A stretch of DNA of 64,000 nt from Candidatus Eremiobacteria bacterium (GCA_963737065.1 CAVTRC010000001.1:2048001-2112000); one strand, 5' to 3'. Positions 5,865 to 54,071 are shown, counted from the stretch's first letter. A program made the numbers and translations. The notes: generated from the letters alone by a model not told the origin.

Positions 5865-6146
5865 TTATTGCGGGACGCGCAACCGTTGCCCCGGCTCGAG
5901 GCTCGTCGCGTGCAAACGGTTTGCGTCGGAGATGCGATCGATCGTTTCTTGCACGTCGCCGTCGTTTGACGTGTTTGATGCGGCGATCGACCACAATGTG
6001 TCGCCCGGCCGCACCGTGATCGTTGTATAGTGTTGCGCCGTGGCCGCGTAAAGATGGATGCCCGAGAGCGTCGGTAGCGCGACGATGAGACCAAGCGCAG
6101 CGAGCGTGATCGCCGGCATCAGAGTGAATTTCTTGCGCTTACCCAC
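5865..6146 (-). CDS. membrane-anchored LysM protein, YneA/ChiZ-like SOS cell-division inhibitor
   Basis: Basic N-terminus, one TM helix and a LysM domain (TVRPGDTLWSIA...LEPGQRLRVP). Divergent from lexA. Confidence 0.75.
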   Translation of the reverse strand: MGKRKKFTLMPAITLAALGLIVALPTLSGIHLYAATAQHYTTITVRPGDTLWSIAASNTSNDGDVQETIDRISDANRLHATSLEPGQRLRVPQ

Positions 6147-6175
6147 CGTTTTTGCAGCCTTTCGACATCTTGTGC

Positions 6176-6290
6176 CAAACGAGCGTTCGAGCACTATTTC
6201 GGTCCATATGTTGGGCCAAACACCTGTTTGTCCCCAAGATTTTACCACAGCGCTTCGAAGAGCTGTCAAGGTTTCTCGAACGTATGTTTG
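6176..6290. promoter_or_regulatory. three putative LexA boxes (CRAAC-N4-GTTYG)
   Basis: CAAAC-GAGC-GTTCG at 6176-6189, CAAAC-ACCT-GTTTG at 6217-6230 and CGAAC-GTAT-GTTTG at 6277-6290. Confidence 0.7.
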
Positions 6291-6368
6291 CCTTTTCCTG
6301 ACTCCTATGGTAGGGTTGTACAGCAAGCCCATGCCAGACGCATGGCATTTTGTAGCTGAAAGAGACGA

Positions 6369-6541
6369 GGGGGCCCCGCTGTAGCGGGGGGCGCGCAGCC
6401 GAAGGCGGAGTGCCTTTCAAACCTACGGGGTCCCCAAAACGCGAAGCGTCACGATGGGGACCCGCTGTAGCGGGGGCGCGCAGCCGAAGGCGGAGTGCCT
6501 TTCAAACTACGGGGTCCCCAAAGTGCGAAGCAGTTTGGGGG
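6369..6541 (+). repeat. two tandem copies of a ~88-nt structured intergenic repeat
   Basis: Copies at 6369-~6449 and 6456-6541. Shared core GGGGGCGCGCAGCCGAAGGCGGAGTGCCTTTCAAAC..GGGGTCCCC, also found at 16378 and 16526. Confidence 0.85.
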
Positions 6542-6545
6542 TATT

Positions 6546-7160
6546 TTGGACAAGCCAGCGACAGAGCGACAGCAGCGGATTCTCGAAGTGATTCGCGCCT
6601 TTACCGCAGAGCACGGTTATCCGCCGTCCGTTCGCGAGATCGGCGAGCGCGTCGGCTTATCGTCGTCGTCGACGATTCACGCGCATCTGAAGGCGCTGGA
6701 ACGGCGCGGTCTGATCTCGCGCGATCCGACGAAGCCGCGCGCGCTGCGCTCCGATTTGAACGTCCCGCGTACCCGTCAGCCCGACACCGTCGTCATGCCG
6801 ATCGTCGGCAAAGTGGCCGCCGGCGTTCCGATTACCGCCGAAGAGAATCTCGAGGGCGAGTTCGTTCTGCCGACGTCATTCGTGCCGCGTTCGTCCGATG
6901 CGTTCATGCTGCGCGTGCAGGGTGACTCGATGGTTGAAGCCGCGATCCTCGATGGCGATCTCATTCTGGTGCGTCCGCAAAAAACCGCGAGCAACGGTGA
7001 AATCGTTGTCGCGATGCTCGATGGTGAAGCGACGGTCAAGCGCTTCTATCGCGAGAACGGGCAAGTCCGTTTGCAGCCGGAGAATTCCGCGATGGCGCCA
7101 ATCTACGCGAGCGATGTCGACATCATCGGCCGCGTGGAGGCTGTCGTCCGCCGCCTTTAG
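6546..7160 (+). CDS. lexA: SOS repressor LexA
   Basis: GYPPSVREIG helix-turn-helix, VAAG cleavage site, GDSM catalytic Ser and TVKR catalytic Lys. Probable TTG start at 6546. Confidence 0.95.
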   Translation: MDKPATERQQRILEVIRAFTAEHGYPPSVREIGERVGLSSSSTIHAHLKALERRGLISRDPTKPRALRSDLNVPRTRQPDTVVMPIVGKVAAGVPITAEENLEGEFVLPTSFVPRSSDAFMLRVQGDSMVEAAILDGDLILVRPQKTASNGEIVVAMLDGEATVKRFYRENGQVRLQPENSAMAPIYASDVDIIGRVEAVVRRL

Positions 7161-8304
7161 TGCGGTCACCGGCGCGGCGGCTCGATTTAAAGCCGTAGCC
7201 GACCTTCCGTTTATAGCTGCAACGCGCGACGCGCTGCCTTGGAGTTTCGTCGCGTTGCTGGCGGCTTTCGTTGTTCTTTTGCCGCTCGTCCCCGCGCCCG
7301 GGCCGGTATTCGGGCCGGGTCTCGGATTGCGCGTCTCGTCGGCATTGTTACCGGCATTCGGGATTATGGGGGCCGCACTTGCGCCCGCACTCGGATGGCA
7401 CTATGCGAAGCGGACGGCACTCCCGTTCGCGCCCGCGATCGCCGGGACGTTGTTGGCCTACCTGGTCGCGTTGCCGCCGCTCCATGGATCGGCCCTCGAT
7501 TATCTACGGCTCGTCGGTCCGAGCGGGTTGTTTCTCGCACTCGGTATCGCGGGCGCGTTCGCGCTCTGCGCGCGACTGTTGCGAAATGCGTGGGCCGCTG
7601 CGGCCACCGTCGTCGTACTCTGCTGCATCCTTCATTTCGAACACGTCTCATTGACCGCCGCAGTGCAAGCCGTTCTCAAACCGCTCGGAACGCTCGGCGA
7701 CACATATTTTGCGTTCGTCTTCATCGTGTTCATCGAAACGCTCTTGTGGACGTTCGGCATGCATGGACCGGCGCTGCTGGCGGCCGTCGTCACGCCGGTC
7801 TATCTGACGTTGCAGATGCAAAATACGACCGCGTTCCAATCGCATGCGGCGCTGCCGCACATCGTCGTCGTGTCATTGTTTCTCTTTGTATTTCCCGGCG
7901 GGTCGGGCGGAACGCTTCCCCTGGCCGCACTGCTTGCCGTTTCGCGAGTCCGTAAGCTGCATAGGATCGGCCGCGCGACGATGCTTCCCGCGCTCTTCAA
8001 CATCAACGAGCCGCTGATCTTCGGCGCGCCGATCGTGTTCAATCCGTATCTCGTTCCGCCGTTTCTCATCGTCCCGTTGGTTCTCGCGACGACGACGTAT
8101 TTTTCGATGCAGTGGGGCTGGGTGGGACGTCCGGCGTTTTACGTGCCGTCGTCGGTTCCGACGGTTATCTCTACGTATGTCGCTACGCTCGATCCGCGCG
8201 CCGTTTTACTGGCGATCGTCAACATCGCGATCGCAGCCGTCGTGTACTTCCCGTTCGTGCGCGCATACGAAGCGCATTACGCCGAACCAGACCGCGCACG
8301 GTGA
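7160..8304 (+). CDS. PTS EIIC component, lactose/cellobiose family (start uncertain)
   Basis: LLWTFGMHG, GGSGGTL and PALFNINEPLIFGAPIVFNP motifs. Confidence 0.85.
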
Positions 8305-9548
8305 TCGAGCTTCTCTGCGAACGGTTCGGAATCGGCGGCCGCGTTCGTGAAGCGGCCCTGCGTGCGCACGAACGGGTGCGCGATGTGCGCTATCCCGCAC
8401 AAGAGACGGTGAAGGCAAACGTATTACGCGCGTTTCTCGATGAGGGCATTGCGGAGAGCGATCTTGGCGGTTCGACCGGATATGGCTATGACGACGCTGC
8501 GCGCGAACGGTACGAGTCGTTGCTCGCGCGCGTGTTCGGGGCGGAACGTTGTCTCGCGCGATTGTCGATCGTCAGCGGAACGCATGCGATCGTGATCGCG
8601 CTTGCCGCGTGCGTTCCTCCCGGAAAACGGTTGATCTCGGTGGCGGGTCGTCCGTATGACACGTTACGCAATGCGATCTGCACGGCACCCGATTCACTGG
8701 TCGCGCAAGGTGTCGCGTACGACGAAATCGCCCTTTGCGCGAGTGACGATCTCGATCTCGATACGATCGCGCGAAGCGTTCGACGCAACGACGTGGCAGC
8801 AATTTTCGTGCAGCGTTCGCGCGGCTACGCGGCGCGACGTTCGCTCGATATTGCGCGAATCGAAACGTTGACGTCGCGCGTACGCGAGGCTGCGCCGCAC
8901 GTCCTCATTCTCGTCGACAACTGCTATGGCGAACTCGTCGAGCCACGAGAACCCACTCACGCCGGCGTGGACCTCGTGATGGGCTCGCTGATTAAGAACT
9001 TGGGCGGGTCCCTCGCGCCCGCGGGCGGCTACGTAGCCGGGCGGGAAACCGCCGTCGCTCGCGTTGCTGCGCGGCTCTATGCGCCGGGACTCGGCGGAGC
9101 GCTCGGGCCGACGCTCGGCTTCGGGCGCGCCTTCATTCAAGGCCTCTTTCTCGCACCGCTCGTCGTCGAACAGACCCTGCGCGGCTTGGATTTCGCTGCC
9201 GCACTCTTCGCGGAGTTAGGGTTTCGCGTCGATCCGCTGCCCGGCGCAGCGCGGACGGACATCGTGCAGGCAATCCGTCTGGAAAACACCGAGCGCCTCT
9301 TACGCTTCGCCCGTGGACTCCAGCAAGCGATGCCCGTCAATGCAAAATTTGCGCCGGAACCGGCCCCGGTGCCGGGTTACGTGGATCCCGTCGTTATGTC
9401 GAGCGGCGCGTTCGTTGCGGGTGCGACCATCGAACTTTCGTGCGATGCGCCCTTACGCGAGCCGTACGAGGTGTACTTACAAGGTGGGCTCATAACCGAG
9501 CATACGATGCTCGGTGCACTTTTCGCGGCGCGGGCGGTTCTTGAATAA
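8301..9548 (+). CDS. YnbB-like methionine gamma-lyase family (aluminium resistance) PLP protein
   Basis: STGYGYDD, VSGTHAI, QRSRGY, VDNCYGE, GSLIKNLGG and GATIELSCDAP motifs. Confidence 0.9.
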   Translation: MIELLCERFGIGGRVREAALRAHERVRDVRYPAQETVKANVLRAFLDEGIAESDLGGSTGYGYDDAARERYESLLARVFGAERCLARLSIVSGTHAIVIALAACVPPGKRLISVAGRPYDTLRNAICTAPDSLVAQGVAYDEIALCASDDLDLDTIARSVRRNDVAAIFVQRSRGYAARRSLDIARIETLTSRVREAAPHVLILVDNCYGELVEPREPTHAGVDLVMGSLIKNLGGSLAPAGGYVAGRETAVARVAARLYAPGLGGALGPTLGFGRAFIQGLFLAPLVVEQTLRGLDFAAALFAELGFRVDPLPGAARTDIVQAIRLENTERLLRFARGLQQAMPVNAKFAPEPAPVPGYVDPVVMSSGAFVAGATIELSCDAPLREPYEVYLQGGLITEHTMLGALFAARAVLE

Positions 9549-9585
9549 AGGCGGCTTACCCGGCGCAGAGAATCAGCTTCCACCA

Positions 9586-9951
9586 GTGAGTACGCAAGAA
9601 GACCGCTCTCACGAGCGCCGGTTTTTCCGAGCATCAGTTGACTTTCCCGTGACGGTTATCGTTCCGGGTCACGAGCTCGTTCTTTCGGGCAGGGCGCTCG
9701 ATCTGAGTCGCGGCGGTATGCGCGTCTCGACGAATACCGATCTTCCGGCGGGACAACCGATCATGTTGCGGTTCGTACTTCCGAACAGCGAGCGCGAACT
9801 ACTCGTCCGCGCGAAAATCGTGCTGTCGTTTTTTGATAATTCGTCACAAATGTACGCGCACGGCATTGCATTCACGCAATACACCACGCACGATCACGAC
9901 CAGATCGCGAATTTCGTCACCAACGTGGAAAGCCGTCCGCAGGGTAGTTAG
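9586..9951 (+). CDS. PilZ domain protein (c-di-GMP receptor)
   Basis: ERRFFR (RxxxR) and DLSRGG (DxSxxG) motifs. Confidence 0.85.
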   Translation: MSTQEDRSHERRFFRASVDFPVTVIVPGHELVLSGRALDLSRGGMRVSTNTDLPAGQPIMLRFVLPNSERELLVRAKIVLSFFDNSSQMYAHGIAFTQYTTHDHDQIANFVTNVESRPQGS

Positions 9952-9953
9952 AA

Positions 9954-10175
9954 CTACGGGCGTTGTTCGCCCGACTCACCCATGAAACCGTAGAAAAAGT
10001 AACGGTTCCCGTCGGACGTCGTAATGACGATCCGAGTATCTTGAATTTCAGCTGCTTTGATCGTCTTGCCGATCAATGTCTCAAGAATAGACTGCGCTTG
10101 CATGAATTCGGCCTCGCGCAGTGCATCCGGCTCTACCTCTATGAGCTCGAGAAGCTCGTCGATCCGGTCGTTCAT
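9954..10175 (-). CDS. small hypothetical protein
   Basis: ATG with AAGGTG ribosome-binding site; fills the gap between neighbouring genes. Confidence 0.55.
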   Translation of the reverse strand: MNDRIDELLELIEVEPDALREAEFMQAQSILETLIGKTIKAAEIQDTRIVITTSDGNRYFFYGFMGESGEQRP

Positions 10176-14572: not shown

Positions 14573-14646
14573 CGCGCTCGGCGGGACTCGAACCCGCATC
14601 TCCGGCTTAGTCGGAACCGTGCTTTATCCAATTAAGCTACGAGCGC
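14573..14646 (-). tRNA. tRNA-like gene with an Arg-type body and a non-canonical anticodon loop (CCGACUA)
   Basis: Acceptor stem GCGCTCG/CGAGCGC, D-arm GCTT-AATTGGATA-AAGC, anticodon stem CGGTT/AGCCG and T-arm GCGGG-TTCGAGT-CCCGC. Confidence 0.7.
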
Positions 14647-14650
14647 TGTG

Positions 14651-15934
14651 ATGCAATCACGCGATGGACAGTCGTTGACAACCGAGACCGCGCACGATCT
14701 TGCCGGCGAAGCGTTCGAGAATTACAAGCAGTACATTAATCCGCCGTTGGCGCGCGTGATGAAGCTCTCAGGCTCGCCGGTTGAAGTCCGCGCTTCGGGC
14801 ACGACGATTTGGGATCAGAACGGTAAGGCGTATCTCGATTTCGCCGGCGGCTACGGCGTCTTCACGCTCGGACACTCGCATCCGCGTGTGATTGCCGCGG
14901 TCCGCGAGCAGATGGAGTCGATGTCGCTTTCGGGCAAGACGATGTTCAACGTTATGCTCGGACGAGCGGCGAAACGTCTCGCGCAACTCGCGCCCGGAGA
15001 TCTCCAGTATTCATTTTGGTGCAATAGCGGAACCGAAGCGGTAGAAGGCGCGATCAAGCTCGCGCGTGCCGCAACGGGACGGATAAAGATCGTTGCAACG
15101 CGCGATGCATATCACGGAAAAACGATCGGCGCCCTGTCGATTAGCGGTCGCGAAGCTTTTCAAACGCCGTTTCGTCCGCTTCTGGCTGACGTGGCGCACG
15201 TCGATTTTGGAGACGCATCCGTGCTCGATGACGCGCTGCGCGATGCGGCCGCATTCATCGTGGAACCCGTGCAAGGCGAAGGCGGCGTAAACGTCCCGCG
15301 CGACGGCTATCTGCGCGCCGTTCGCGATGCGTGCGATCGCACCGGCGCGGTCTTTATCGCCGACGAAGTGCAAACGGGTCTCGGCCGCTGCGGTTACCGG
15401 TTCGGTTGCGATCGCGACGGCGTCGTTCCCGACGTCATGACGCTCGCGAAGGGACTCTCCGGCGGCGTCATTCCGGTCGGGGCGTTCATCGCACGCCCCG
15501 ACCTGTGGAATCGCGCGTACGCGAAGCAGCCGCTCGTACACACGTCGACATTCGGCGGAAGCGAAATCGCATGCGCCGCCGCGCTCGCCGCGATGGACGT
15601 TCTCGAGGACGAGGACCTCATCGCAAACGCGCGCGATCGCGGTGCACAATTGCTCGACGGATGCCGTGCGCTTGCAACGCAATTTCCTCACGTGATTCGT
15701 GAAGCGCGCGGCGTCGGGTTGCTCGTCGGCGTTGAACTCACGAACGAGGGCTACGGCGGCTGGATCATTCCGGAAATGTTGAAAGCCGGCGTGACGGCCG
15801 CGTGGACGCTGAATCAGCAGCGCGTTATTCGCTTGGAGCCGCCGTTGGTGGTCACCGGCGACGAAGTACAGTACGCGCTCGCGGCATTGCGGGCAGGGGT
15901 AACAACCGCCGGTGAGAAGCTAGGGCGCTTGTAA
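14651..15934 (+). CDS. class-III PLP aminotransferase (omega-transaminase / putrescine aminotransferase-like)
   Basis: YLDFAGGYG, NSGTEAVEGA, YHGKT, EPVQGEGG, DEVQTG, AKGLSGG and STFGG motifs. Confidence 0.92.
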   Translation: MQSRDGQSLTTETAHDLAGEAFENYKQYINPPLARVMKLSGSPVEVRASGTTIWDQNGKAYLDFAGGYGVFTLGHSHPRVIAAVREQMESMSLSGKTMFNVMLGRAAKRLAQLAPGDLQYSFWCNSGTEAVEGAIKLARAATGRIKIVATRDAYHGKTIGALSISGREAFQTPFRPLLADVAHVDFGDASVLDDALRDAAAFIVEPVQGEGGVNVPRDGYLRAVRDACDRTGAVFIADEVQTGLGRCGYRFGCDRDGVVPDVMTLAKGLSGGVIPVGAFIARPDLWNRAYAKQPLVHTSTFGGSEIACAAALAAMDVLEDEDLIANARDRGAQLLDGCRALATQFPHVIREARGVGLLVGVELTNEGYGGWIIPEMLKAGVTAAWTLNQQRVIRLEPPLVVTGDEVQYALAALRAGVTTAGEKLGRL

Positions 15935-15941
15935 ATCGATC

Positions 15942-16376
15942 ATGCCCTACGTCGAAACCACGATTGCGATCGCGGCGCCTGCGCGCGCGGTTTACGAGCT
16001 CGCGAAAGATCAGGAGCGGTTCCCGCAATTCATGCCGGACGTCGAAACCGTGTCGGTTCTCGAACGCCATGCGGATCATTGGATCACACGCTGGAAGACG
16101 CTTGTGGAAGAAGCGCCGATCGAGTGGACGGAAGAAGATCGTTTCGATGACGACGCATTGCGCATCGATTACAAACTGCTCGAGGGCGATCTCGATAAGT
16201 TCGAAGGCGCGTGGACATTCGAAGAACGTGACGGCATAACGCACGTGCTGCTCGGCGTCGACTACGATTTCGGCGTGCCGACGCTCGCGCAGTTGATCGG
16301 CCCGACCCTAGAGAAAAAGGTCAAGGAAAACAGCGAGATGATGCTCGCAGCGCTCAAACGCGAGGCTGAAAAGTGA
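15942..16376 (+). CDS. SRPBCC/START (Coq10/polyketide cyclase-like) ligand-binding protein
   Basis: IAAPARAVYEL..D.ERFPQFMPDV and EGDLDKFEGAWTF motifs. Confidence 0.85.
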   Translation: MPYVETTIAIAAPARAVYELAKDQERFPQFMPDVETVSVLERHADHWITRWKTLVEEAPIEWTEEDRFDDDALRIDYKLLEGDLDKFEGAWTFEERDGITHVLLGVDYDFGVPTLAQLIGPTLEKKVKENSEMMLAALKREAEK

Positions 16377-16673
16377 TGGGGGCCCCAAAGGCCTTTGGGG
16401 GGGCGCGCAGCCGCAGGCGGAGTGCCTGTCAAACAGAGGGGTCCCCGAAGTGCGGAGCACTTTGGGGATGAAGGAAAACAGCGAGATGATGCTCGCAGCG
16501 CTCAAACGCGAGGCTGAAAAGTGATGGGGCCCCAAAGGCGTTTGGGGGGCGCGCAGCCGCAGGCGGAGTGCCTGTTAAACAGAGGGGTCCCCGAAGTGCG
16601 GAGCACTTTGGGGATGAAGGAAAACAGCGAGATGATGCTCGCAGCGCTTAAACGCGAGGCTGAAAAGTGATGG
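16323..16673 (+). repeat. 3' end of the SRPBCC gene repeated three times, separated by two copies of the ~88-nt structured repeat
   Basis: AAGGAAAACAGCGAGATG...GAAAAGTGATGGG at 16323, 16471 and 16617; repeat elements at 16378-16467 and 16526-16613. Confidence 0.9.
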
Positions 16674-17794
16674 GCACCCAAAGCGCTCGGCCGAAATTCT
16701 GCTTCGTCATTCACCCGCTTTCGCTGCTGGACGTTGCCCGTTATGAGCCGGGCGCGGCGGGCAAGGGAGAGCCGATCATTCGCAAGATTCTCGAGTGGAT
16801 GCCGTCGTACGCTGCGGTGCATGTGACCGGCGTGCGCACGCCGGACGGTCGCGAAACGGAAGGGTGGTTCGTGGCCGCGCCGCTGCTGCCCGAGCAGATC
16901 ATGGAGTTGCCGCGCGAAGAGGTGTACAAGCGAATCGTGCGCGCGATCGAGATCGGTGCGGAACTCGGCGCAAATGTTGCGGGACTCGGGGCGTTCACCG
17001 GCGTCGTCGGTGACGGCGGCATCACGATTGCGCAACGGTCGCCGATCCCGGTGACGACGGGAAACTCGCTCACGATTGCCGCCGGAATCCAAAGTCTATT
17101 CCGCGCCGCGCGCGAAATGGAGATCGATCCGTCGACGTCAACCGCCGTCGTCGTCGGTGCAACGGGTTCGATCGGAAGCGCATGCGTGAAGCTCATTGCG
17201 TCGCGCGTCAAAGACGTGATTCTCGTCGCGCGCAACGCCACGCGTTTAGCGAAGTTTCACGAAGAGGTGCGCGACGAGCTTCCGTGCGACTCGACGTACA
17301 CGACCGATATTCCGGACGCCGTGCGCCGTTCGCAATTGATTCTTACCGCGACATCGTCGACGCAAGATATCATCGAGCCCGAAGATTTGCAAACCGGCGC
17401 GGTCGTCTGCGAACTATCCCTTCCGCACGACGTCAGCCGGCGTGTTGCGTTGGAGCGTCCCGACGTCCTCGTCACCGAAGGCGGCAACATGTGCGTGCCG
17501 GGTGCGCCTCGATTCGAACGCGTCCGTGAACCCGGAACGGATTTCGATTTGAATCTCCCTCCGCGCACCGCACTCGCCTGCATGAGCGAAACCATGGTGC
17601 TCGCACTCGAACGCCGCTTCGAGTCGTATACACTCGGCCGCGGCATCGATGTAGCGAAGGTCGTCGAGATCGAAGAGATGGCCGGACGCTGTGGGTTCAC
17701 GCTCGCCGGCATGCGTGCATTCGACGCAGCGATTACGCGCGAAAAAGTAACGGCGACCCGAGAAGCCGCCGCCGCACGGCGCGTCGCTGTATGA
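16670..17794 (+). CDS. acyl-ACP reductase-like NAD(P)-dependent oxidoreductase (COG5322-like)
   Basis: FCFVIHPL, GLGAFT, TTGNSLT, VGATGSIG Rossmann motif and ACMSETMVLALE with the putative catalytic Cys. Confidence 0.8.
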   Translation: MGTQSARPKFCFVIHPLSLLDVARYEPGAAGKGEPIIRKILEWMPSYAAVHVTGVRTPDGRETEGWFVAAPLLPEQIMELPREEVYKRIVRAIEIGAELGANVAGLGAFTGVVGDGGITIAQRSPIPVTTGNSLTIAAGIQSLFRAAREMEIDPSTSTAVVVGATGSIGSACVKLIASRVKDVILVARNATRLAKFHEEVRDELPCDSTYTTDIPDAVRRSQLILTATSSTQDIIEPEDLQTGAVVCELSLPHDVSRRVALERPDVLVTEGGNMCVPGAPRFERVREPGTDFDLNLPPRTALACMSETMVLALERRFESYTLGRGIDVAKVVEIEEMAGRCGFTLAGMRAFDAAITREKVTATREAAAARRVAV

Positions 17795-17835
17795 AGCCTG
17801 GTACGGCGCCGCCGCATCGCGGTTCAGCCGTTGCT

Positions 17836-17986
17836 CGACGAGGTCCCGCTGCATGATCGCTCGCGCCGCCATGTTCTTTAGGCGCGCCCTAGGGGCGTTT
17901 CAAGCGCACCGAGTTCTGTCGCGCGCCATGCACGGGGGGCCCCACAACGTGGGGGGCGCGGAGGCTCGGCCGGAGCGCCGTTCAAA
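17836..17986 (+). repeat. ~150-nt structured element, copy A
   Basis: Shares CGACGAGGTCCCG, TTTAGGCGCGCCCTAGGGG, TTCTGTCGCGCG-CATG, CCCAC-N3-GTGGG and GGAGCGCC with 20717-20863. Confidence 0.75.
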
Positions 17987-18892
17987 ATGAAAAAAATCGT
18001 GTCGGTGTCGCTTGGCTCGTCGACACGCGATCATCGCGCCGTCATCGATCTCATGGGCGAGGACTTCGATATTTCACGCGAAGGTGTCGACGGCAAATTG
18101 GACGTGGCGATCAAACGGGTCGAGGAGCTCGACGGGAAGGTCGATGCGATCGGGCTCGGCGGGATCGACGTCTACCTGTATGCAGGATCGAAGCGGTATG
18201 CGTTGCGCGACGGCTTACGTTTGCTCAATGCGGCGAAAACTACGCCGGTCGTTGACGGAAGCGGTCTCAAGAACACACTCGAACGCGAAGCGGTCCGATA
18301 TATGCAAGACGACCTGCACATCGATCTTCGCGGGAAAAAAGTGCTGATGGTGAGCGCGCTCGACCGCTTCGGTATGGCGCAGGCGCTCGTCGACGCCGGT
18401 GCGGATGTGCTCTTCGGTGACTTCATCTTCGCGCTCGACAAAGACATGGCGGTGCGCGATCTCAAGACATTCGAAGAGATGGCGGAAAAATATCTCCCGG
18501 ACGCCTGCAAACTGCCGTTTCAATTTTTTTATCCCACAGGGAAGAAACAAGAGAAGCCGCCCGAGCCGAAGTATCCGCAGTACTACGACGAAGCCGACAT
18601 CATTGCGGGCGACTTCCATTTCATGCGCCAGTTCATGCCGCGTCGCCTCGACGGAAAGATCGTGTTGACCAACACCGTTACGCAAGCGAATATCGACGAA
18701 CTGCGCGATCGCGGCGTTACGATGTTAATCACCACGACGCCCGACTTCGAAGGCCGTTCGTTCGGAACGAACGTCATCGAAGCGGCATTGCTCGCGTTCC
18801 TCGGCAAGCGCTGGGAAGATGTGACGCCCGCGGACTACGAGCGCGTGTTGCGGGAATTGCGTCTGCGTCCGCGGGTCATCTCGCTGAATTGA
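17987..18892 (+). CDS. conserved uncharacterised protein (family often labelled quinate 5-dehydrogenase)
   Basis: VSVSLGSS.RDH, GLGGIDVYL, VVDGSGLKNTLE and GRSFGTNVIEA motifs. Confidence 0.7.
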   Translation: MKKIVSVSLGSSTRDHRAVIDLMGEDFDISREGVDGKLDVAIKRVEELDGKVDAIGLGGIDVYLYAGSKRYALRDGLRLLNAAKTTPVVDGSGLKNTLEREAVRYMQDDLHIDLRGKKVLMVSALDRFGMAQALVDAGADVLFGDFIFALDKDMAVRDLKTFEEMAEKYLPDACKLPFQFFYPTGKKQEKPPEPKYPQYYDEADIIAGDFHFMRQFMPRRLDGKIVLTNTVTQANIDELRDRGVTMLITTTPDFEGRSFGTNVIEAALLAFLGKRWEDVTPADYERVLRELRLRPRVISLN

Positions 18893-19398
18893 TCGTCGGC
18901 GTCGTTTCCGACACGCACCTTCCGCGCTTCGGTTGCGAGTTGCCGCCGGCGCTCGTGCGCGGCTTGCGAACGGCGAACGTCGACGTCATCGCGCATTGCG
19001 GCGATTTGACGGAACTGATGGCGATCGACCTACTCCGGGAGATCGCGCCCGTCGTTGCGGTCGCCGGCAATAACGACGCGAAGCAGCTGCATAAAGAGCT
19101 GGGCGAGCGCAAAATCATCGAAGCGGGCGACGCGCGCATCGGCGTCGTGCATGGCCACGCCGGGAAGGGACGCTCAACCGCCGACCGCGCGTTCAATGCG
19201 TTCACCGATGAGGCGGTCGACGTAATTCTGTTCGGTCATTCGCACATTCCATATCGTGCGCGGCGCGACGGCGTACTGCTGTTCAATCCGGGTTCGCCTA
19301 CCGACAAACGGCTAAATCCCGCATATTCGTATGGGATCGTGCGCGTCGACGGCAAGCGCGTGCGCGCCTCACATCGCTTCTATCTCTCGAAGAAGTAA
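18889..19398 (+). CDS. YfcE/MJ0936-like metallophosphoesterase
   Basis: SDTH, HCGD, GNND, HG, GHSH and NPGS motifs. Confidence 0.9.
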   Translation: MIVGVVSDTHLPRFGCELPPALVRGLRTANVDVIAHCGDLTELMAIDLLREIAPVVAVAGNNDAKQLHKELGERKIIEAGDARIGVVHGHAGKGRSTADRAFNAFTDEAVDVILFGHSHIPYRARRDGVLLFNPGSPTDKRLNPAYSYGIVRVDGKRVRASHRFYLSKK

Positions 19399-19479
19399 GG
19401 CCGAGATGGCGAGCATATTGCGATGCGTGCTCGCGTACATACCTCGGTACGCCGAGCGGCTTTGCGGAGAACCAAACGG

Positions 19480-20013
19480 ACACGCTCCCCTACGTCGGCA
19501 CGTTGCTGGGCGGGATGGTGGCGCAGTGCGATTGTGGTGACCGCGCTCGTATCCACGCTGACGACGCTCTGGACGACGATTTTGTACCTGTCGCGGTCGG
19601 CATTTGCGATGGGCCGCGACCGGCTGTTGCCCCGCGCGCTCGGCGAACTCGACCGGCGCGACGAACCGCTGTGGTCGCTCGCGGTCGTGGCCGTCCTCGT
19701 GACGGTATGCGAACTGGTTACCGGCTTTTCAAAGACGGCGACCGATCAACTTCAGCTCGTGCTCAATGCCAGCTCGGTTTTCCTCGGCCTGCTATTCGTG
19801 TTATCCGCCTTCGCAGCCGTGCGGCGGTTCAGGCACGACCGTAGCGCATCGTTGAGCAGCGTTATCATTCCTTCGGTCGGCGGCATCGCGTTGCTCGGCG
19901 TTCTCGCAGCAACGATCGCGGTCGAAGACCCCACCCTCCGCTGGTATGCGTGGTCGGGCATCGTCTTGGGTATACCGTTCGCACTCTGGCGCGGTCGGGT
20001 TCTGCGAGGGTAG
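19480..20013 (+). pseudogene. C-terminal fragment of an APC-family amino-acid permease
   Basis: SRSAFAMGRDRLLP motif and several TM helices; the N-terminal part is absent. Confidence 0.6.
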
Positions 20014-20163
20014 AACCACGGTTTGCCTTCATGGTGCAGGGGAACGCTCGGAGTCCCCCAAACAAACCGCGCCAGCGTTCTCACCCGGACGCAAAATTTG
20101 TTTACACGGGGTCCGTAGCGGGGCTTCAGCGCCTCGCCGTCGATCCTTCGTGAGGGTCTGTAC

Positions 20164-22357: not shown

Positions 22358-22433
22358 AAAGCAAACGCCGCGAGGCCCCTCCGGCGTCGTGCATGAATCA
22401 ATCAATCTCGCTTTCGTTATGAAGGGGCGTCGC

Positions 22434-23547
22434 ATGTCGTTTGGTCGTGCGTTTGCGGTTTTCGGTGTTGCTGCGATGCTCGCGGGCTGCGCAGGCGGAG
22501 GGACGAGCGGTGGTGGCAATGGGAACGTGAGCCCGCCGGCCGCCCCATCGAGCGCGAACATGACGAAGAAGAGCGTTCAGCGCGCTGACGTGCAAAGTTC
22601 GCTTGCCGGCGTGCAGGCGATGCGCGAAGCCGTTGGCCCGGGCACGAGCGCTTTCGTCCGTCAACGCAACGCTTTGAAAGCCGCGGTAGCGAAAGCGCGG
22701 CGCGCGGGAATGTTCGGCATACTGCACCCGATGGCGACGGCAACGAGTGACCCGAATTGCAACGGAAGCGGTTCGTCGGAATCAACAGCGCCCGGGTCGA
22801 ACGGCTCGGTCGTCATTACGGTGTCGACGTATTATGATTCCGCGTGCACCGATATCGAGAGCGTCATCGTATGGACCGCGACACAAAGCGGAAGCACCGT
22901 GAACGGGCCCGCGACCGTTACGCTGTACTCGAAGAACGGGACCGTGACCGAAACAGCCTCGGCGCAAGTGCAGTTCATCTACAGCGACTCCACGCTCTCC
23001 GTGGTGACCGGGATCTCGATCCTGATGACGAGCATTGTGGATAACGGGAAAAATCAGGGCGAACTCGGTGTCGGCTGTAACATTGCGTCCGCGACGACGA
23101 TTTCGTGCGGAGTGGCAGTCGCTGCCGACGTGTACGCGGCGCAGATCGAAGAGGGCGCGAACGTCAGCTTCACGGCGACGCATGACGTCGAGCGGCGCAT
23201 CGATGTCGATGCAGGCGAGCGCATATCAAAGTTCGCTCGACGCGTTATCGATCGCTCCGGCGCAGTTCCCGGACTGGACGATTTCGCCCGCGTCCACGCA
23301 AACCGGATCCGTAGCGATCAGCGGCTCGGAAATCGGTTTGAGCGTTTCGCTGACCGTTGCGGATACGACGAATGCGGGTTCGGTCGCTATTAGCGGTACG
23401 GTGAGCGGCACGGTGAAGGGAACGCTGCGGCGCAACGACACCAATGCGACCGTCGGCGGCTTCACAATCGACGAATTCGGCAACGGCACGTTGACATACG
23501 GCGACGGCACGCAGGTGCAAATCGTGAACTACGCAGTACAGGGGTAG
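22434..23547 (+). CDS. Ser/Thr/Gly-rich lipoprotein; frameshift near 23180
   Basis: Lipobox MLAGC. Composition continues in the 23035..23547 frame. Confidence 0.6.
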
Positions 23548-49960: not shown

Positions 49961-50230
49961 ATGGATGGGTTTGCGGGACTGCTACGCGAGGCAATGGTTT
50001 TGGCGGCGGTGCTCTGCGTGCCGGTGCTCGGTGTTGCGGCTCTCGTTGGAACCGCGATCGCGGTCGTGCAAGCCGCAACGCAAATACAGGAGCAAACGTT
50101 GACACTGCTTCCCAAGATGCTTGCCGTCGGCTTCACGATCGCGCTCTTCGGCGGCTTTGCGATGCACGCGTGCGAAGCGCTCTTCCACCACGCGCTCGAT
50201 GCGATTCCCGCACTCGTGTACGGCCCGTGA
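49961..50230 (+). CDS. fliQ: export gate protein FliQ/SctS
   Basis: QAATQIQEQTLTLLPK motif. Confidence 0.92.
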   Translation: MDGFAGLLREAMVLAAVLCVPVLGVAALVGTAIAVVQAATQIQEQTLTLLPKMLAVGFTIALFGGFAMHACEALFHHALDAIPALVYGP

Positions 50231-50937
50231 CTGCCGCGTCGTTACTCGTTTTCGCGCGCTGCGCCGGCTTCGTCTTTCGCGCGCCGGGCTTTTCGCATCC
50301 GAGCGTTCCGCGCGCGCTTCGTGCCGGTCTCGCACTGGCGCTCGCCGCAGCGATCGCTCCCGGCGTTCACGTTCGAACGTTGGACGGCGCCGCCCTGATC
50401 GTCGGTGTCGCGACCGAATTTGCGCTCGGGACGGCGATCGGCATAGCGGCCTCGCTGTTGTATGACGGTGCGTATGCCGGCGGACGGATGTTGGACGACT
50501 ACGTCGGGGTGAAAGCGATTGCGCCGAACGTCGATCTTGTCGCGCCGAGCGGGTTCGGGCGGCTTTGGTCACTGGCATTTACCGGCGGATACTTTCTCTT
50601 CGGCGCATATGGCCCGGCCATATCGACGTTCGCCGCGAGTTTCGACCACATCGCACTCGGTGCGCCGTTCGACCCGCATGCATGGGAACCGTTTGCGATC
50701 TCGGTTGCAACGACGATCGTGACCGTAGCGGTTGCGGTTGCTGCACCGGCAGTTGCGCTCGCGTTCGTTACGCAGATTGCGCTTGCGGCGCTCGCGCGGA
50801 CGGTCCCGCGGTTCGCGACCTTCTCGCTTTCCTTTCCGGTCGTCTTCGGCGTCGTGCTGATCGTGACGGCGCTCTCCATTCCGATCGCCGTATCGCAGGC
50901 AGCGCATCCGTTCGTTCTCATTCCGGGCGTACGATGA
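50227..50937 (+). CDS. fliR: export gate protein FliR/SctT
   Basis: FAR..GF...PGF, EFALG and LARTVP.F..FSLSFP motifs; located between fliQ and flhB. Confidence 0.85.
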   Translation: MTAASLLVFARCAGFVFRAPGFSHPSVPRALRAGLALALAAAIAPGVHVRTLDGAALIVGVATEFALGTAIGIAASLLYDGAYAGGRMLDDYVGVKAIAPNVDLVAPSGFGRLWSLAFTGGYFLFGAYGPAISTFAASFDHIALGAPFDPHAWEPFAISVATTIVTVAVAVAAPAVALAFVTQIALAALARTVPRFATFSLSFPVVFGVVLIVTALSIPIAVSQAAHPFVLIPGVR

Positions 50938-51944
50938 GCGACGCATCAGAGAAGCAATTCGATGCCACACCGTCCCGCGTCGCAAAAGCACGCCGCGAGG
51001 GCAACGTTCCGCGCTCGCAAGAACTTGCGGCGAACATCGCATTCATTGCTGCGGCACTGTGCGTCGCAGCAGTCTCGCCTTTGTTCAACGCTGCGGCACA
51101 GCGCGCGCTCGCGCGGGCGGCGGGCGGTATGGATGCCGTGGCCGATACGCTCGCAATGCTGGCATGCGCAGTTGCGGTTGCAGCCGGCAGTGCAGCCGCA
51201 GCCGCCGTTGCCGGCGTCATTCAGACCGGGGGTGTTACAATCGTCGCGCCATCGTTCAACGTCTCTCGTCTCGCGCCGGGCGAGGGCATCAAACGCATGT
51301 TGTCCGGTGAAACGGTAACGCACGCGGTTCGCGCGCTGTTCGCATTTGCGGTCGCCGGAGCCGCGACCGTTGCGTCGATGTGGTCGCTCTTCGGAGTCGC
51401 GCGAGAAAGTTCACATATTGACGCGGTGGCCGCGACGGCATGGAACGGTGCAGAACACGTCGTGTTTGCAGCCGCGGCCGTCGGTATGGGCTTTGCAACG
51501 ATCGAATACGCCGTCGCGCGGCGTTCGTGGCTCTCGAAGCTCAAGATGAGCCTGCATGAGCTGAAACGGGAACTGAAAGAGAACGACGGTGATCCGGCGG
51601 CGCGAGCGCGCCGGAAGGCATTGCATCGCAGCCTCATTCGCGGCGCGATCGCGAAGGTCAAAGACGCCTCGTTCGTCGTCGTGAATCCGACGCACGTTGC
51701 GGTTGCGCTCGAATACCGTCCGCCTGCCGTACCGGTGCCGGTCGTTCTCGTGCGCGCTGCAGACGAGATGGCGTTGCGCGTTCGCGCGCTCGCGGCGCAA
51801 AGCGGCATTCCGATCATCGAAAACATCGCGCTCGCGCGTGCACTTTTCGCCCAGACGCAGCCCGGCGAAGCGATACCGCATGAGTGCTACGTCGCGGTCG
51901 CGGAAATCGTCGCGTCGCTCATCCGCAGCGGAGCGTTCGAATGA
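50934..51944 (+). CDS. flhB: export switch protein FlhB/SctU
   Basis: EKQFDATP....AR.EG.VPRS, KE.DGDP and the NPTH autocleavage motif. Confidence 0.92.
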   Translation: MSDASEKQFDATPSRVAKARREGNVPRSQELAANIAFIAAALCVAAVSPLFNAAAQRALARAAGGMDAVADTLAMLACAVAVAAGSAAAAAVAGVIQTGGVTIVAPSFNVSRLAPGEGIKRMLSGETVTHAVRALFAFAVAGAATVASMWSLFGVARESSHIDAVAATAWNGAEHVVFAAAAVGMGFATIEYAVARRSWLSKLKMSLHELKRELKENDGDPAARARRKALHRSLIRGAIAKVKDASFVVVNPTHVAVALEYRPPAVPVPVVLVRAADEMALRVRALAAQSGIPIIENIALARALFAQTQPGEAIPHECYVAVAEIVASLIRSGAFE

Positions 51945-53992
51945 CGAAACTCCCTGTTTATGCTTTTGCGGCGTGTTTGCTCGCAATCGTGGCGATTTTG
52001 ATCGTGCCGCTGGCGCCCTGGCTGCTCGACGTGCTGCTCGCCATCAATGTGTTCGGTTCCGCGCTTGTGCTGTTGCTCGCCGTGACGATTGATGACCCGC
52101 TCGAGTTCTCAGCCTTTGCGCCGGCATTGCTGGTCGCGACGCTCTTCCGCCTGTCGCTCGACGTGTCGGCGACGCGGCTCATCTTGACCGATGGAGCAAC
52201 ACCGGGCGCAGTCGGTGCAATTATCCCGGCTTTCGGCGCGTTCGTCGTTCACGGGAATCTCGTCGTCGGTTTGATCGTCTTCGCCATTCTCATCACGATT
52301 CAATTCATCGTGATCGCGAGCGGATCGCAGCGAGTTGCCGAAGTCGCCGCGCGCTTCACGCTCGACGCGATGCCCGGCAAACAGATGGCGATCGATGCGG
52401 ACGTGCACGCCGGCGTGCTCGATGCCGACGGCGCGCGGCGCAAACGCGCGCTCGTGCAGCGCGAAGCCGATTTCTACGGCGCGATGGACGGCGCCGGAAA
52501 ATTTGTGAAAGGCGATGCCGTCGCTGCACTGGTCATCGTCGGCTTGAACCTTTCGGGCGGCATCGTCGTCGGCATTGCGTATCACGGAATGCCGCCGCTC
52601 GACGCACTCAACACCTACGCGTTGCTCTCCATCGGCAATGCGCTCGTGACGACGCTGCCGGCGTTTCTGATTTCGACCGCGATGGGCATGATGGTCACGC
52701 GCGTCGCTTCGGACGGCGCGCTCGGTGCCGATCTCGCCGCGCAGCTTTTCGCGCGTCCCGACGTATTGCGCAGCGCGGGTGCGCTGCTGATCGTCCTCTC
52801 GTTCGTTCCCGCATTGCCGCGGCCGGTGTTTTTCATGCTCGGCGGATGCGCGTTCGTTGCAGCGCAGCTCGCGGCGCGCAAACAACGCGCGCGCGTCCGG
52901 CAGGCGACGGCGGAAAGCGAGCGCGCAAAGCGGCAGGCGCTCCGGCGACCGGAACTTGCGCTCGGACTCGTGGGCGTGGATGCGATGTCGATCGACATCG
53001 GCTCGGAGATCGCGCACCTCCTAGTGCCGCCGCTGGCGGACGCGCTATTGGATCGTATCGGCGAAGTCCGTCGCGCGCTTGCAACGGAGATCGGTATCGT
53101 GCTTCCGGGCGTGCGGCTGCGCGACGATCTCGCGCGCGACGCACAGACGTATGCGATCCGCGTTCGCGATCGGATTGCCGGAGAAGGGCGGTTGCAGCTT
53201 GAGCGCGTCCTTGCGGTCGCCGACGTCTCGGTGCTGTCGCGCTTCGGCCTCGATGTGCAGCCGGAACCCGTCTACGGGCTTCCGTCCGCGTGGATCGATT
53301 CGGCGCAACGTACCGCGCTCGCCGATGCGGGCGCTTTAGTGTTCGATCCCATTTCGATCGTCGGATCGCATGTCGCGGAAACCGTACGGCGGTATGCAAG
53401 CGAACTCGTCGGCCGCCAAGAGCTACAGACGATGCTCGAACATCTGCGCGCAACGATGCCGGCTCTCGTTAAAGAAATCGGCACGGACGCGTTCCCACTT
53501 GGCGTATTGCACCGTGCGTACGTGTATCTGTTGCGCGAGGGCGCCTGGCCGCGCGACCCCGTCGCGCTCTTGCAGGCGATGCTCGAGGCGCCGACGCGCG
53601 ACCCACGCGAACTTGCGGAGGCGGCTCGTCGCGCGATCGTTCCCGATCTGCTGCGCCGGCGCGGTGTGAGCAAACTCGAGCCGCTCTTGCTCGACCCCGA
53701 ATACGAGCGCGAACTGACGCGAGCTTGGGTTAGCGCTACGGTTGAAATCGCTCCCGATCCCGACCGCGCGCTCTCACTGCGAGACCAAGTAGCGTCGTAT
53801 TCGGCTCGAGTACCGCGCGAGCGAGCGGCCGTCGTCTGTATGCCGCCATTGCGGCCGGTGCTCGCGGACTTCCTTATGCGGAGCGGAGTCCGGACGGAAG
53901 TATTCGCGTATGGTGAACTGCCCCCGGAGTTGCAGTTAGTTCCGGCCGGAGTGGTGAACCATGAGCCGCGGCCCTTGGCGGCATTTGTTTGA
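51941..53992 (+). CDS. flhA: export gate protein FlhA/SctV
   Basis: RVAEVAARFTLDAMPGKQMAIDAD and FYGAMDGAGKFVKGDA motifs. Confidence 0.95.
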   Translation: MTKLPVYAFAACLLAIVAILIVPLAPWLLDVLLAINVFGSALVLLLAVTIDDPLEFSAFAPALLVATLFRLSLDVSATRLILTDGATPGAVGAIIPAFGAFVVHGNLVVGLIVFAILITIQFIVIASGSQRVAEVAARFTLDAMPGKQMAIDADVHAGVLDADGARRKRALVQREADFYGAMDGAGKFVKGDAVAALVIVGLNLSGGIVVGIAYHGMPPLDALNTYALLSIGNALVTTLPAFLISTAMGMMVTRVASDGALGADLAAQLFARPDVLRSAGALLIVLSFVPALPRPVFFMLGGCAFVAAQLAARKQRARVRQATAESERAKRQALRRPELALGLVGVDAMSIDIGSEIAHLLVPPLADALLDRIGEVRRALATEIGIVLPGVRLRDDLARDAQTYAIRVRDRIAGEGRLQLERVLAVADVSVLSRFGLDVQPEPVYGLPSAWIDSAQRTALADAGALVFDPISIVGSHVAETVRRYASELVGRQELQTMLEHLRATMPALVKEIGTDAFPLGVLHRAYVYLLREGAWPRDPVALLQAMLEAPTRDPRELAEAARRAIVPDLLRRRGVSKLEPLLLDPEYERELTRAWVSATVEIAPDPDRALSLRDQVASYSARVPRERAAVVCMPPLRPVLADFLMRSGVRTEVFAYGELPPELQLVPAGVVNHEPRPLAAFV

Positions 53993-54071
53993 CCGTCGCG
54001 CGGCGCCTGAGTATACTCGTAGGGTTGTCGCCGGGCTTTGGCCTGGCGTTCCTTCTTTCATAGTGAAGCCG

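Follow-up and report, generated by a model that had tools for sequence, protein, structure and literature searches.

A conserved transaminase and reductase gene block of Eremiobacterota as a candidate route to primary amines

Do the co-oriented genes at 14.6-19.4 kb of a genomic segment from a Candidatus Eremiobacteria bacterium form a route to amines, and, if so, which genes belong to it and on what substrate would their products act? The segment analysed (i.e. the window; 64,000 nucleotides of GCA_963737065.1, CAVTRC010000001.1:2048001-2112000) derives from a soil-dwelling member of Eremiobacterota, a little-known phylum, and carries five open reading frames (ORFs) on the plus strand in this region, which a preliminary description had interpreted as a putative operon for long-chain alkylamine synthesis. 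The families then assigned to the five co-oriented genes were borne out by agreement between the ORFs and matches to Pfam, NCBIfam and the sequences of solved structures in the Protein Data Bank (PDB). Four of the products (i.e. TA, SRPBCC, RED and U301, listed below) have about an even chance of jointly forming a primary amine from an activated carboxylic acid, and the acyl chain is probably lipophilic.

14648/14651..15934, plus strand: TA, class-III (omega) aminotransferase, 428 aa (Pfam Aminotran_3, E 3.4e-97)
15942..16376, plus strand: SRPBCC, small protein of the SRPBCC/START fold, 144 aa (Pfam Polyketide_cyc, 72.9 bits, cut-off 23.4)
16667..17794, plus strand: RED, predicted thioester reductase of the AAR/PigE-N/TamH-TR type, 375 aa (matches to PDB entries 4ppm and 6jzq)
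17987..18892, plus strand: U301, 301 aa (no Pfam or NCBIfam match)

Predicted activities of RED, TA and U301

RED was placed in the AAR-type thioester reductase family by its sequence, its cysteine and its nucleotide loop, and is predicted to have reductase activity. HMMER searches of solved-structure sequences aligned RED residues 52-364 with the N-domain of PigE (4ppm; E 5.6e-40) and residues 54-345 with AAR (6jzq; E 1.1e-14). Cys305 of RED (motif ACMSET, codon 17579-17581) aligned with the catalytic cysteine of AAR, was invariant in 28 of 28 relatives from genome loci and was at least 90% conserved among 70 sequences, in agreement with the conserved cysteine noted in the preliminary description. 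The nucleotide loop, GATGSIG at residues 164-170, was likewise invariant in all 28 sequences. In AAR, Cys294 bears the acyl-enzyme thioester and the loop reads GATGDIG at residues 162-168, as described in PMC7089970. A 39%-identical relative of RED (i.e. the RED part of the fusion protein P0396) superposed on the AAR structures 6jzq and 6jzu with TM-scores of 0.76-0.80.

The TA gene starts at a GTG codon at 14648 or at an ATG in the next codon (14651). Its product matched Pfam Aminotran_3 with 326 bits (cut-off 30.5), and Lys268 in the motif TLAKG is, by our own reading of the motif, the candidate lysine for binding of pyridoxal phosphate. Among solved structures, YgjG (4uox; E 1.1e-103) was the best match to TA and residues 393-743 of PigE (4ppm; E 1.1e-88) the next. 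Enzymes of this YgjG/PigE branch of class III act on terminal amines and aldehydes. TA scored 418.3 and 367.1 bits, respectively, against two putrescine aminotransferase models (i.e. NF008570 and TIGR03372), below their cut-offs of 612 and 658.65 bits, and 415 bits against positions 368-730 of the NCBIfam PigE model NF053554, below the cut-off of 850. As RED matched positions 46-355 of this last model, the two proteins together tile PigE. These matches support RED and TA as a putative split equivalent of the reductase-transaminase pair of PigE and TamH, accompanied by two extra conserved proteins. The TamH-like pairing suggested in the preliminary description thus finds support in both halves of the PigE model, in the PDB matches and in the chemistry described for the two known enzymes: TamH with TamA converts a C12 acid into a C12 amine via a carrier-bound thioester and an aldehyde (PMC9594044), and PigE performs thioester reduction followed by transamination (PMC8341465).

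U301 represents an undescribed, highly conserved family that is an obligate neighbour or fusion partner of RED. Neither U301 nor two of its homologues matched a Pfam or NCBIfam family, and a tblastn search of 72,556 plasmids with U301 gave no match; the family has thousands of members. Among 30 aligned sequences of several phyla, which share 45-87% identity with the window protein, 49 columns were invariant, and none of these was a cysteine. The suggestion that this protein is a partner of the reductase is upheld by its conserved adjacency to RED and by natural fusions of the two, both described below. An AlphaFold (AF2) model of U301 had a predicted local distance difference test (pLDDT) score of 90.6 and a predicted TM-score (pTM) of 0.88. 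The Foldseek comparison proposed earlier for this protein was run and retrieved two-lobe alpha/beta proteins, of which AAR and the AAR-like terminal amidation domain (TAD) of the carmabin pathway gave the highest TM-scores (~0.5); lower matches comprised sugar-binding proteins, malic enzyme and amino-acid dehydrogenases. A distant kinship between U301 and RED is possible on the basis of this modelled fold. At the position of the Rossmann glycine loop, U301 carries SALDRFG followed by an invariant Gly-Asp that ends the next strand, and the SALDRFG region is predicted to be a modified nucleotide- or phosphate-binding site.

Several labels and assignments for U301 were rejected. ‘Quinate 5-dehydrogenase’ was discarded because U301 had no Shikimate_DH match and has SALDRFG instead of the glycine loop, and ‘serine carboxypeptidase’, a label of U301-RED fusions, because no peptidase domain was found. 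For the fusions P0275 and P0268, Pfam gave Shikimate_DH or nothing, and for P0396 and P0499, NCBIfam gave reductase-type models only. Assignment of U301 as an amino-acid-kinase-like enzyme was limited to a motif resemblance, with no kinase among the 50 fold matches listed. Prediction of a RED and U301 complex returned a score of 0.00 against a mark of 0.32, a result that says nothing for or against binding.

The TAD match raises another use of the reductase fold, namely non-reductive cysteine-thioester chemistry by RED, such as the amide formation proposed for TAD, with U301 supplying the nucleophile. TAD was among the best TM-scores of U301; it shares the AAR fold and an invariant cysteine, and its chemistry is described as unsettled (bioRxiv 10.1101/2024.10.28.620694). 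RED, however, is far nearer in sequence to PigE and AAR than to TAD, which was absent from the search of solved-structure sequences with RED, and the neighbouring transaminase suits an aldehyde product. Such non-reductive chemistry is barely plausible for RED.

Conservation of the gene block and natural fusions

Conservation was assessed by scanning a 15-sequence RED alignment against one genome per species, which confirmed 490 relatives, of which the best 80 loci were kept. An Eremiobacterota-type layout was present in 47 of these 80 loci, and the order TA-SRPBCC-RED-U301 on one strand was found in all 41 of the Eremiobacterota-type loci with enough flanking sequence. Recurrence in 41 loci of other genomes puts this order beyond chance. 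Of the other six, five loci (L003, L008, L021, L030 and L042) are cut by a contig end where the missing gene is expected, and one (L034) has no SRPBCC in the 815 bp upstream of RED and is uninterpretable. The usual frame is panC-coaBC-coaX-dusB-block-(permease)-greA-lysS. Eremiobacterota (Vulcanimicrobiota) assemblies provided the nearest relatives of both RED and U301.

The other 33 loci belonged to Armatimonadota, Bacillota, an actinomycete metagenome-assembled genome (MAG), Anaerolineae, a Methanoregulaceae MAG and others. TA or SRPBCC stood beside RED in none of these 33 loci; in one (L080), a 32%-identical class-III match was located 8.7 kb from RED. U301 was directly upstream of RED in 15 loci and 5.7 kb downstream in one (L059), and was not found within the flanks of the other 17. 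In Bacillota and the actinomycete MAG, U301-RED, or RED alone, lies between coaX-dusB and greA-lysS (i.e. in the same frame as in the window), and greA-lysS was present downstream in 11 loci. The shared dusB/greA-lysS frame in genomes without TA or SRPBCC indicates that U301-RED is an old module kept by vertical descent. Eremiobacterota and three deeper-branching MAGs (L039, L041 and L043) have gained TA and SRPBCC in addition. Atlas neighbours of RED belonged to Chloroflexota, Bacillota, Armatimonadota, Vulcanimicrobiota and Actinomycetota, with Deinococcota not represented among them. Two of the 33 loci showed further peculiarities: the actinomycete MAG (L049) has two tandem U301-like matches (8108-8959 and 9022-9912) upstream of RED, and in L080 a MaoC-like dehydratase gene of the fatty-acid type (9263-9706) directly precedes the RED relative, which has no U301 nearby.

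Physical linkage was less uniform at the junction between SRPBCC and RED. SRPBCC was upstream of RED in 45 loci, and the two genes were at most 256 bp apart, and often overlapping, in 32 of them. The remaining 13 loci had unrelated genes spanning 0.9-6.4 kb between SRPBCC and RED, some of them on the opposite strand, so that the term ‘operon’ used in the preliminary description is too strong. The gap in the window is 290 bp long and is filled by a tandem repeat.

16323..16683, no strand: tandem repeat, 146-bp unit present 2.5 times (Tandem Repeats Finder, 96% matches, score 671)

Each unit duplicates the 3' end and stop codon of the SRPBCC gene and the overlapping RED start, and between these a ~90-bp element that has two hairpins. 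Partial copies of the ~90-bp element occur in another intergenic region of the window (6386-6539), and none was detected in the 80 related loci; the element resembles a small dispersed repeat of the repetitive extragenic palindrome (REP) or miniature inverted-repeat transposable element (MITE) kind. Insertions at the SRPBCC/RED junction recur across genomes (L010-L016, L023, L024, L031-L033 and L036). Most of the inserted ORFs had no Pfam match, and the products that could be identified were a WYL-type regulator, a transporter of the MFS family, a PfkB sugar kinase, an aldo-keto reductase and a phosphoesterase.

Natural fusions were surveyed in the best 150 RED representatives clustered at 50% identity, out of 2,926 proteins with E <= 0.001. 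A U301 domain, detected with a hidden Markov model (HMM), was N-terminal to RED in 38 of the 150, an SRPBCC domain in 10 (BLASTP, with nine of the 10 confirmed by Pfam) and a class-III transaminase in two. Three of the 10 SRPBCC-RED fusions have an added PilZ domain, one of these also having a helix-turn-helix domain (HTH_17), and one RED has a C-terminal GAF domain. A further survey of relatives longer than 657 aa yielded 645 matches; the 115 that were new among those listed comprised 112 proteins with U301 followed by RED, two with RED followed by U301 and one with neither arrangement. The two RED-then-U301 proteins are 79-80% identical to the window RED and have the Eremiobacterota gene order; these could be read-through or assembly errors. 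Named U301-RED fusions were mostly from Chloroflexota (i.e. Roseiflexus, Chloroploca, Anaerolineae, Ardenticatenaceae and Amarolinea), and the model of one of them (P0396, 681 aa) had a pLDDT of 88.2 and a pTM of 0.71. The fusions with signalling domains (P0253, P0267, P0304 and P0388; PilZ-SRPBCC-RED, HTH_17-PilZ-SRPBCC-RED and RED-GAF) hint that some RED relatives are controlled by cyclic di-GMP or another small ligand.

A FastTree phylogeny of RED domains (156 rows, including one of the two TA-fused proteins but leaving out the other, P0365) grouped the U301 fusions in one clade of 51 rows with a support of 97 and the SRPBCC fusions in a separate clade of 17 rows with a support of 99. The window RED fell in a clade of 17 sequences with the four-gene layout (support 81), and the TA-fused row was placed elsewhere. 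These separate positions indicate that RED acquired links with SRPBCC and with TA on more than one occasion, and such repeated linkage argues for a functional connection rather than accidental adjacency.

The same genomic data bear on whether the block is instead made of two unrelated units lying side by side, with RED-U301 as a housekeeping aldehyde/alcohol pair and TA-SRPBCC acting on a different substrate. Such a division would fit the 13 of 45 loci with foreign genes between SRPBCC and RED, the 290-bp repeat array that parts the halves in the window, and the U301-RED pair of Bacillota and the actinomycete MAG, which lies between dusB and greA-lysS without TA/SRPBCC. However, the two halves adjoin in 41 of 41 complete loci, the SRPBCC-RED distance is short or negative in 32 of 45, fusions of SRPBCC and of TA with RED occur in other RED clades, and PigE and TamH show both enzyme families in tandem (PMC8341465, PMC9594044). 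Two unrelated units are on this evidence unlikely.

The proposed route, its neighbourhood and competing readings

In the proposed conversion of an activated acid to an amine, RED would take an acyl group from a phosphopantetheine thioester (i.e. acyl carrier protein (ACP) or coenzyme A (CoA) bound) onto Cys305, as suggested by homology, and would then reduce the enzyme thioester to an aldehyde with NAD(P)H, as in AAR, PigE and TamH. TA would aminate the aldehyde to give R-CH2-NH2. SRPBCC may bind the hydrophobic intermediate or dock on RED to receive it, as suggested by its fold and by the RED fusions; in other family members, ADO or a fused TA domain has this role. For U301, with an AAR-like two-lobe fold of nucleotide-binding type and no conserved cysteine, our guess is a partner that has a binding site for a cofactor or for the acyl donor and that regulates or supplies RED. 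Eremiobacterota would have added TA and SRPBCC to U301-RED, a module long present in Terrabacteria-type phyla at a housekeeping locus, thereby diverting the aldehyde to an amine.

A number of observations weigh against this route. RED scored 198 bits against the PigE model (cut-off 850) and 83.3 bits against the AAR model TIGR04058 (cut-off 449.7), scores below the equivalog cut-offs that indicate RED to be an orthologue of neither PigE nor cyanobacterial AAR. TA scored about as well with the putrescine aminotransferase model as with the PigE model (418 and 415 bits, respectively). U301 had no significant match among the sequences of solved structures, either as a single protein or as a profile, and profile comparison with RED (hhalign) gave a probability of 0.6%, i.e. 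no sequence relationship. Searches with Pfam and NCBIfam found no acyl-activating enzyme or carrier protein at 10.6-24.5 kb. The best PDB match of SRPBCC was TTHA0849 of Thermus thermophilus HB8 (2d4r; E 3.8e-21; residues 1-140 in both), whose internal pocket measures no more than about 18 cubic angstroms according to a 2026 review (PMC13525633); a pocket of the size given there disfavours SRPBCC as a carrier of long chains. The function proposed for SRPBCC in the preliminary description thus survives in part: a tie to RED is provided by the fusions in another RED clade, and it is carriage of a long-chain aldehyde that the TTHA0849 pocket speaks against. To these points are added the 13 interrupted SRPBCC/RED junctions and the loci with U301-RED lacking TA/SRPBCC (15) or with RED alone (17), where the aldehyde must have another fate. 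Counted in favour of the route was the position of the first terminator-like site on the plus strand, at 20075-20092, past the block.

The genes around the block are of housekeeping type. According to Pfam and NCBIfam, panC, coaBC, coaX and dusB lie upstream and a C-terminal remnant of an APC permease gene, greA, lysS and truA downstream. Two features adjoin the block directly.

14573..14646, minus strand: tRNA-Val (GAC) (Rfam, 55.3 bits; ARAGORN)
18889..19398, plus strand: YfcE-type metallophosphoesterase, 169 aa (TIGR00040, 106 bits, cut-off 56; Pfam Metallophos_2)

On the opposite strand, the tRNA gene separates dusB from TA and ends 1 nt short of the TA start. It forms the upstream boundary of the unit in this genome, and its presence ahead of TA means that the unit cannot be co-transcribed with dusB here. 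This tRNA insert is shared by three of 39 scanned loci (L007, L018 and L038). The metallophosphoesterase had been included as a fifth member in the preliminary description and lies within the 14,651-19,398 interval given there, but a homologue follows U301 in only one of 80 loci (L017), and it was rejected from the block as a bystander. The match of an ORF at 19423-20013 to an APC-type amino-acid/polyamine permease is confined to the C-terminal third (Pfam positions 269-405 of 427), and permease matches occupy the same place after U301 in 12 related loci. This ORF is probably the remnant of a permease gene, with the metallophosphoesterase filling the space of the lost 5' part; it too was rejected as a member, showing no conservation with the block. 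Farther away, the lysS-truA interval contains a 334-aa ORF (22389-23393, plus strand) with no Pfam or NCBIfam match. The AT skew of the window is strongly negative (-0.10 to -0.18) at 6001-10000 and 50001-54000, the second stretch also having a raised G+C content of 0.64-0.65.

This neighbourhood could be taken to favour a small polar substrate, with the block converting a dicarboxylyl-CoA via a semialdehyde to an omega-amino acid (e.g. beta-alanine or gamma-aminobutyric acid) or serving diamine/polyamine metabolism. TA scores best with the putrescine aminotransferase model in NCBIfam and with YgjG in the PDB; panC, coaBC and coaX are just upstream; an APC-family permease follows U301 in 12 loci, with a remnant in the window; and the pocket described for TTHA0849 is tiny (PMC13525633). 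Adjacency to the pan/coa genes is, however, uninformative, since the frame from pan/coa-dusB to greA-lysS is older than TA and also occurs without it. TA is below the putrescine aminotransferase cut-offs (418 vs 612 and 367 vs 659 bits), and the SRPBCC fold suggests a hydrophobic ligand. To our knowledge, every characterised relative of RED has a lipophilic acyl substrate, which also counts against a polar substrate. A polar substrate is accordingly rated as improbable.

The permease and the resemblance of TA to YgjG touch equally on the direction of the reactions. In a catabolic scheme, TA would deaminate an amine to an aldehyde and RED would oxidise the aldehyde to an acyl thioester for beta-oxidation. 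YgjG-type enzymes have catabolic roles, the block often has a permease gene beside it and thioester reduction should in principle be reversible. We know of no AAR-family enzyme that operates in the oxidative direction. The locus is moreover a housekeeping one without a regulator or beta-oxidation genes nearby, as judged by Pfam, NCBIfam and the locus scans, and U301-RED is widespread without TA. Catabolism is in our view highly unlikely, and synthesis of an amine from an acyl thioester is the reading carried forward here.

Membrane lipids and related systems

Eremiobacterota are abundant in cold, nutrient-poor soils, and amine synthesis by the block would bear on their lipid chemistry. The block might be the missing route to the long-chain alkylamines of bacterial membrane glycolipids, and U301-RED an ancient module of Terrabacteria-type phyla for lipid building blocks derived from fatty aldehydes, giving amines where a transaminase and a START protein are present and alcohols or diols elsewhere (e.g. 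in the fusion-bearing Chloroflexota). This wider proposal is speculative, and we consider it unlikely to hold. The phosphoglycolipid of Thermus contains an alkylamine, and a 2022 paper describes a fatty-amine pathway as only ‘probably’ present (PMC9636437). Searches of an open-access library and bioRxiv found no paper assigning the genes for Deinococcus/Thermus alkylamines, and likewise none for long-chain diols, compounds for which, together with wax esters, Chloroflexota are known (PMC10150655). The only cultured member of Eremiobacterota has exclusively unidentified polar lipids, of which four are classed as glycolipids, seven as lipids and one as a polar lipid (PMC9758169). Two leads point to a link with the alkylamine lipids of Deinococcus/Thermus: the best solved relative of SRPBCC is the Thermus protein TTHA0849, and Deinococcota is the commonest phylum in an Atlas cluster of U301-like proteins.

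If the proposal is correct, the block would supply candidate genes for making primary fatty amines in ordinary chromosomal metabolism, outside pigment pathways, and the origin of alkylamine lipids would become directly testable. It would also give a first functional handle on U301, a mislabelled family physically coupled to an AAR-type reductase, and a natural four-part system (i.e. reductase, partner, START protein and transaminase) of interest for turning fatty acids into amines by biocatalysis.

Each component has a counterpart among known systems. TTHA0849 has the START fold, is of the same size as SRPBCC and aligns with it over the full length; the cavity reported for TTHA0849 is very small (PMC13525633). 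E. coli YgjG/PatA is the closest solved relative of TA, likewise being a class-III enzyme with terminal-amine substrates, but TA is below both putrescine aminotransferase cut-offs and has other genomic partners. PigE of Serratia (4ppm; MAP branch of prodigiosin synthesis) is the best-scoring characterised relative of RED and second to YgjG for TA, and its Cys296 has been equated with Cys294 of AAR (PMC8341465). PigE is a single chain of 850 aa with the reductase first that uses a 3-acetyloctanoyl-type thioester in a pigment pathway, whereas the window has separate genes, and the surrounding panC, coaBC, coaX, dusB, greA, lysS and truA do not make up a prodiginine/tambjamine cluster.

TamH of Pseudoalteromonas tunicata, an enzyme of tambjamine synthesis, shares with the window the same two enzyme families, the catalytic cysteine, a GxxGxxG loop and the same proposed chemistry, and its fusion order of TA followed by reductase was found in two of the 150 RED representatives. 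In the window, by contrast, the two activities are encoded by separate genes with the SRPBCC gene between them, U301 is a constant fourth partner, no TamA-like adenylation-ACP gene is nearby, and the locus is a housekeeping one rather than a pigment cluster. Cyanobacterial AAR has the same fold as a relative of RED, a nucleotide loop of GATGDIG as compared to GATGSIG, and a Cys294 that corresponds to Cys305 of RED. Each of these two reductases would have dedicated partners to receive the aldehyde, namely the di-iron oxygenase ADO for AAR and TA, SRPBCC and U301 for RED.

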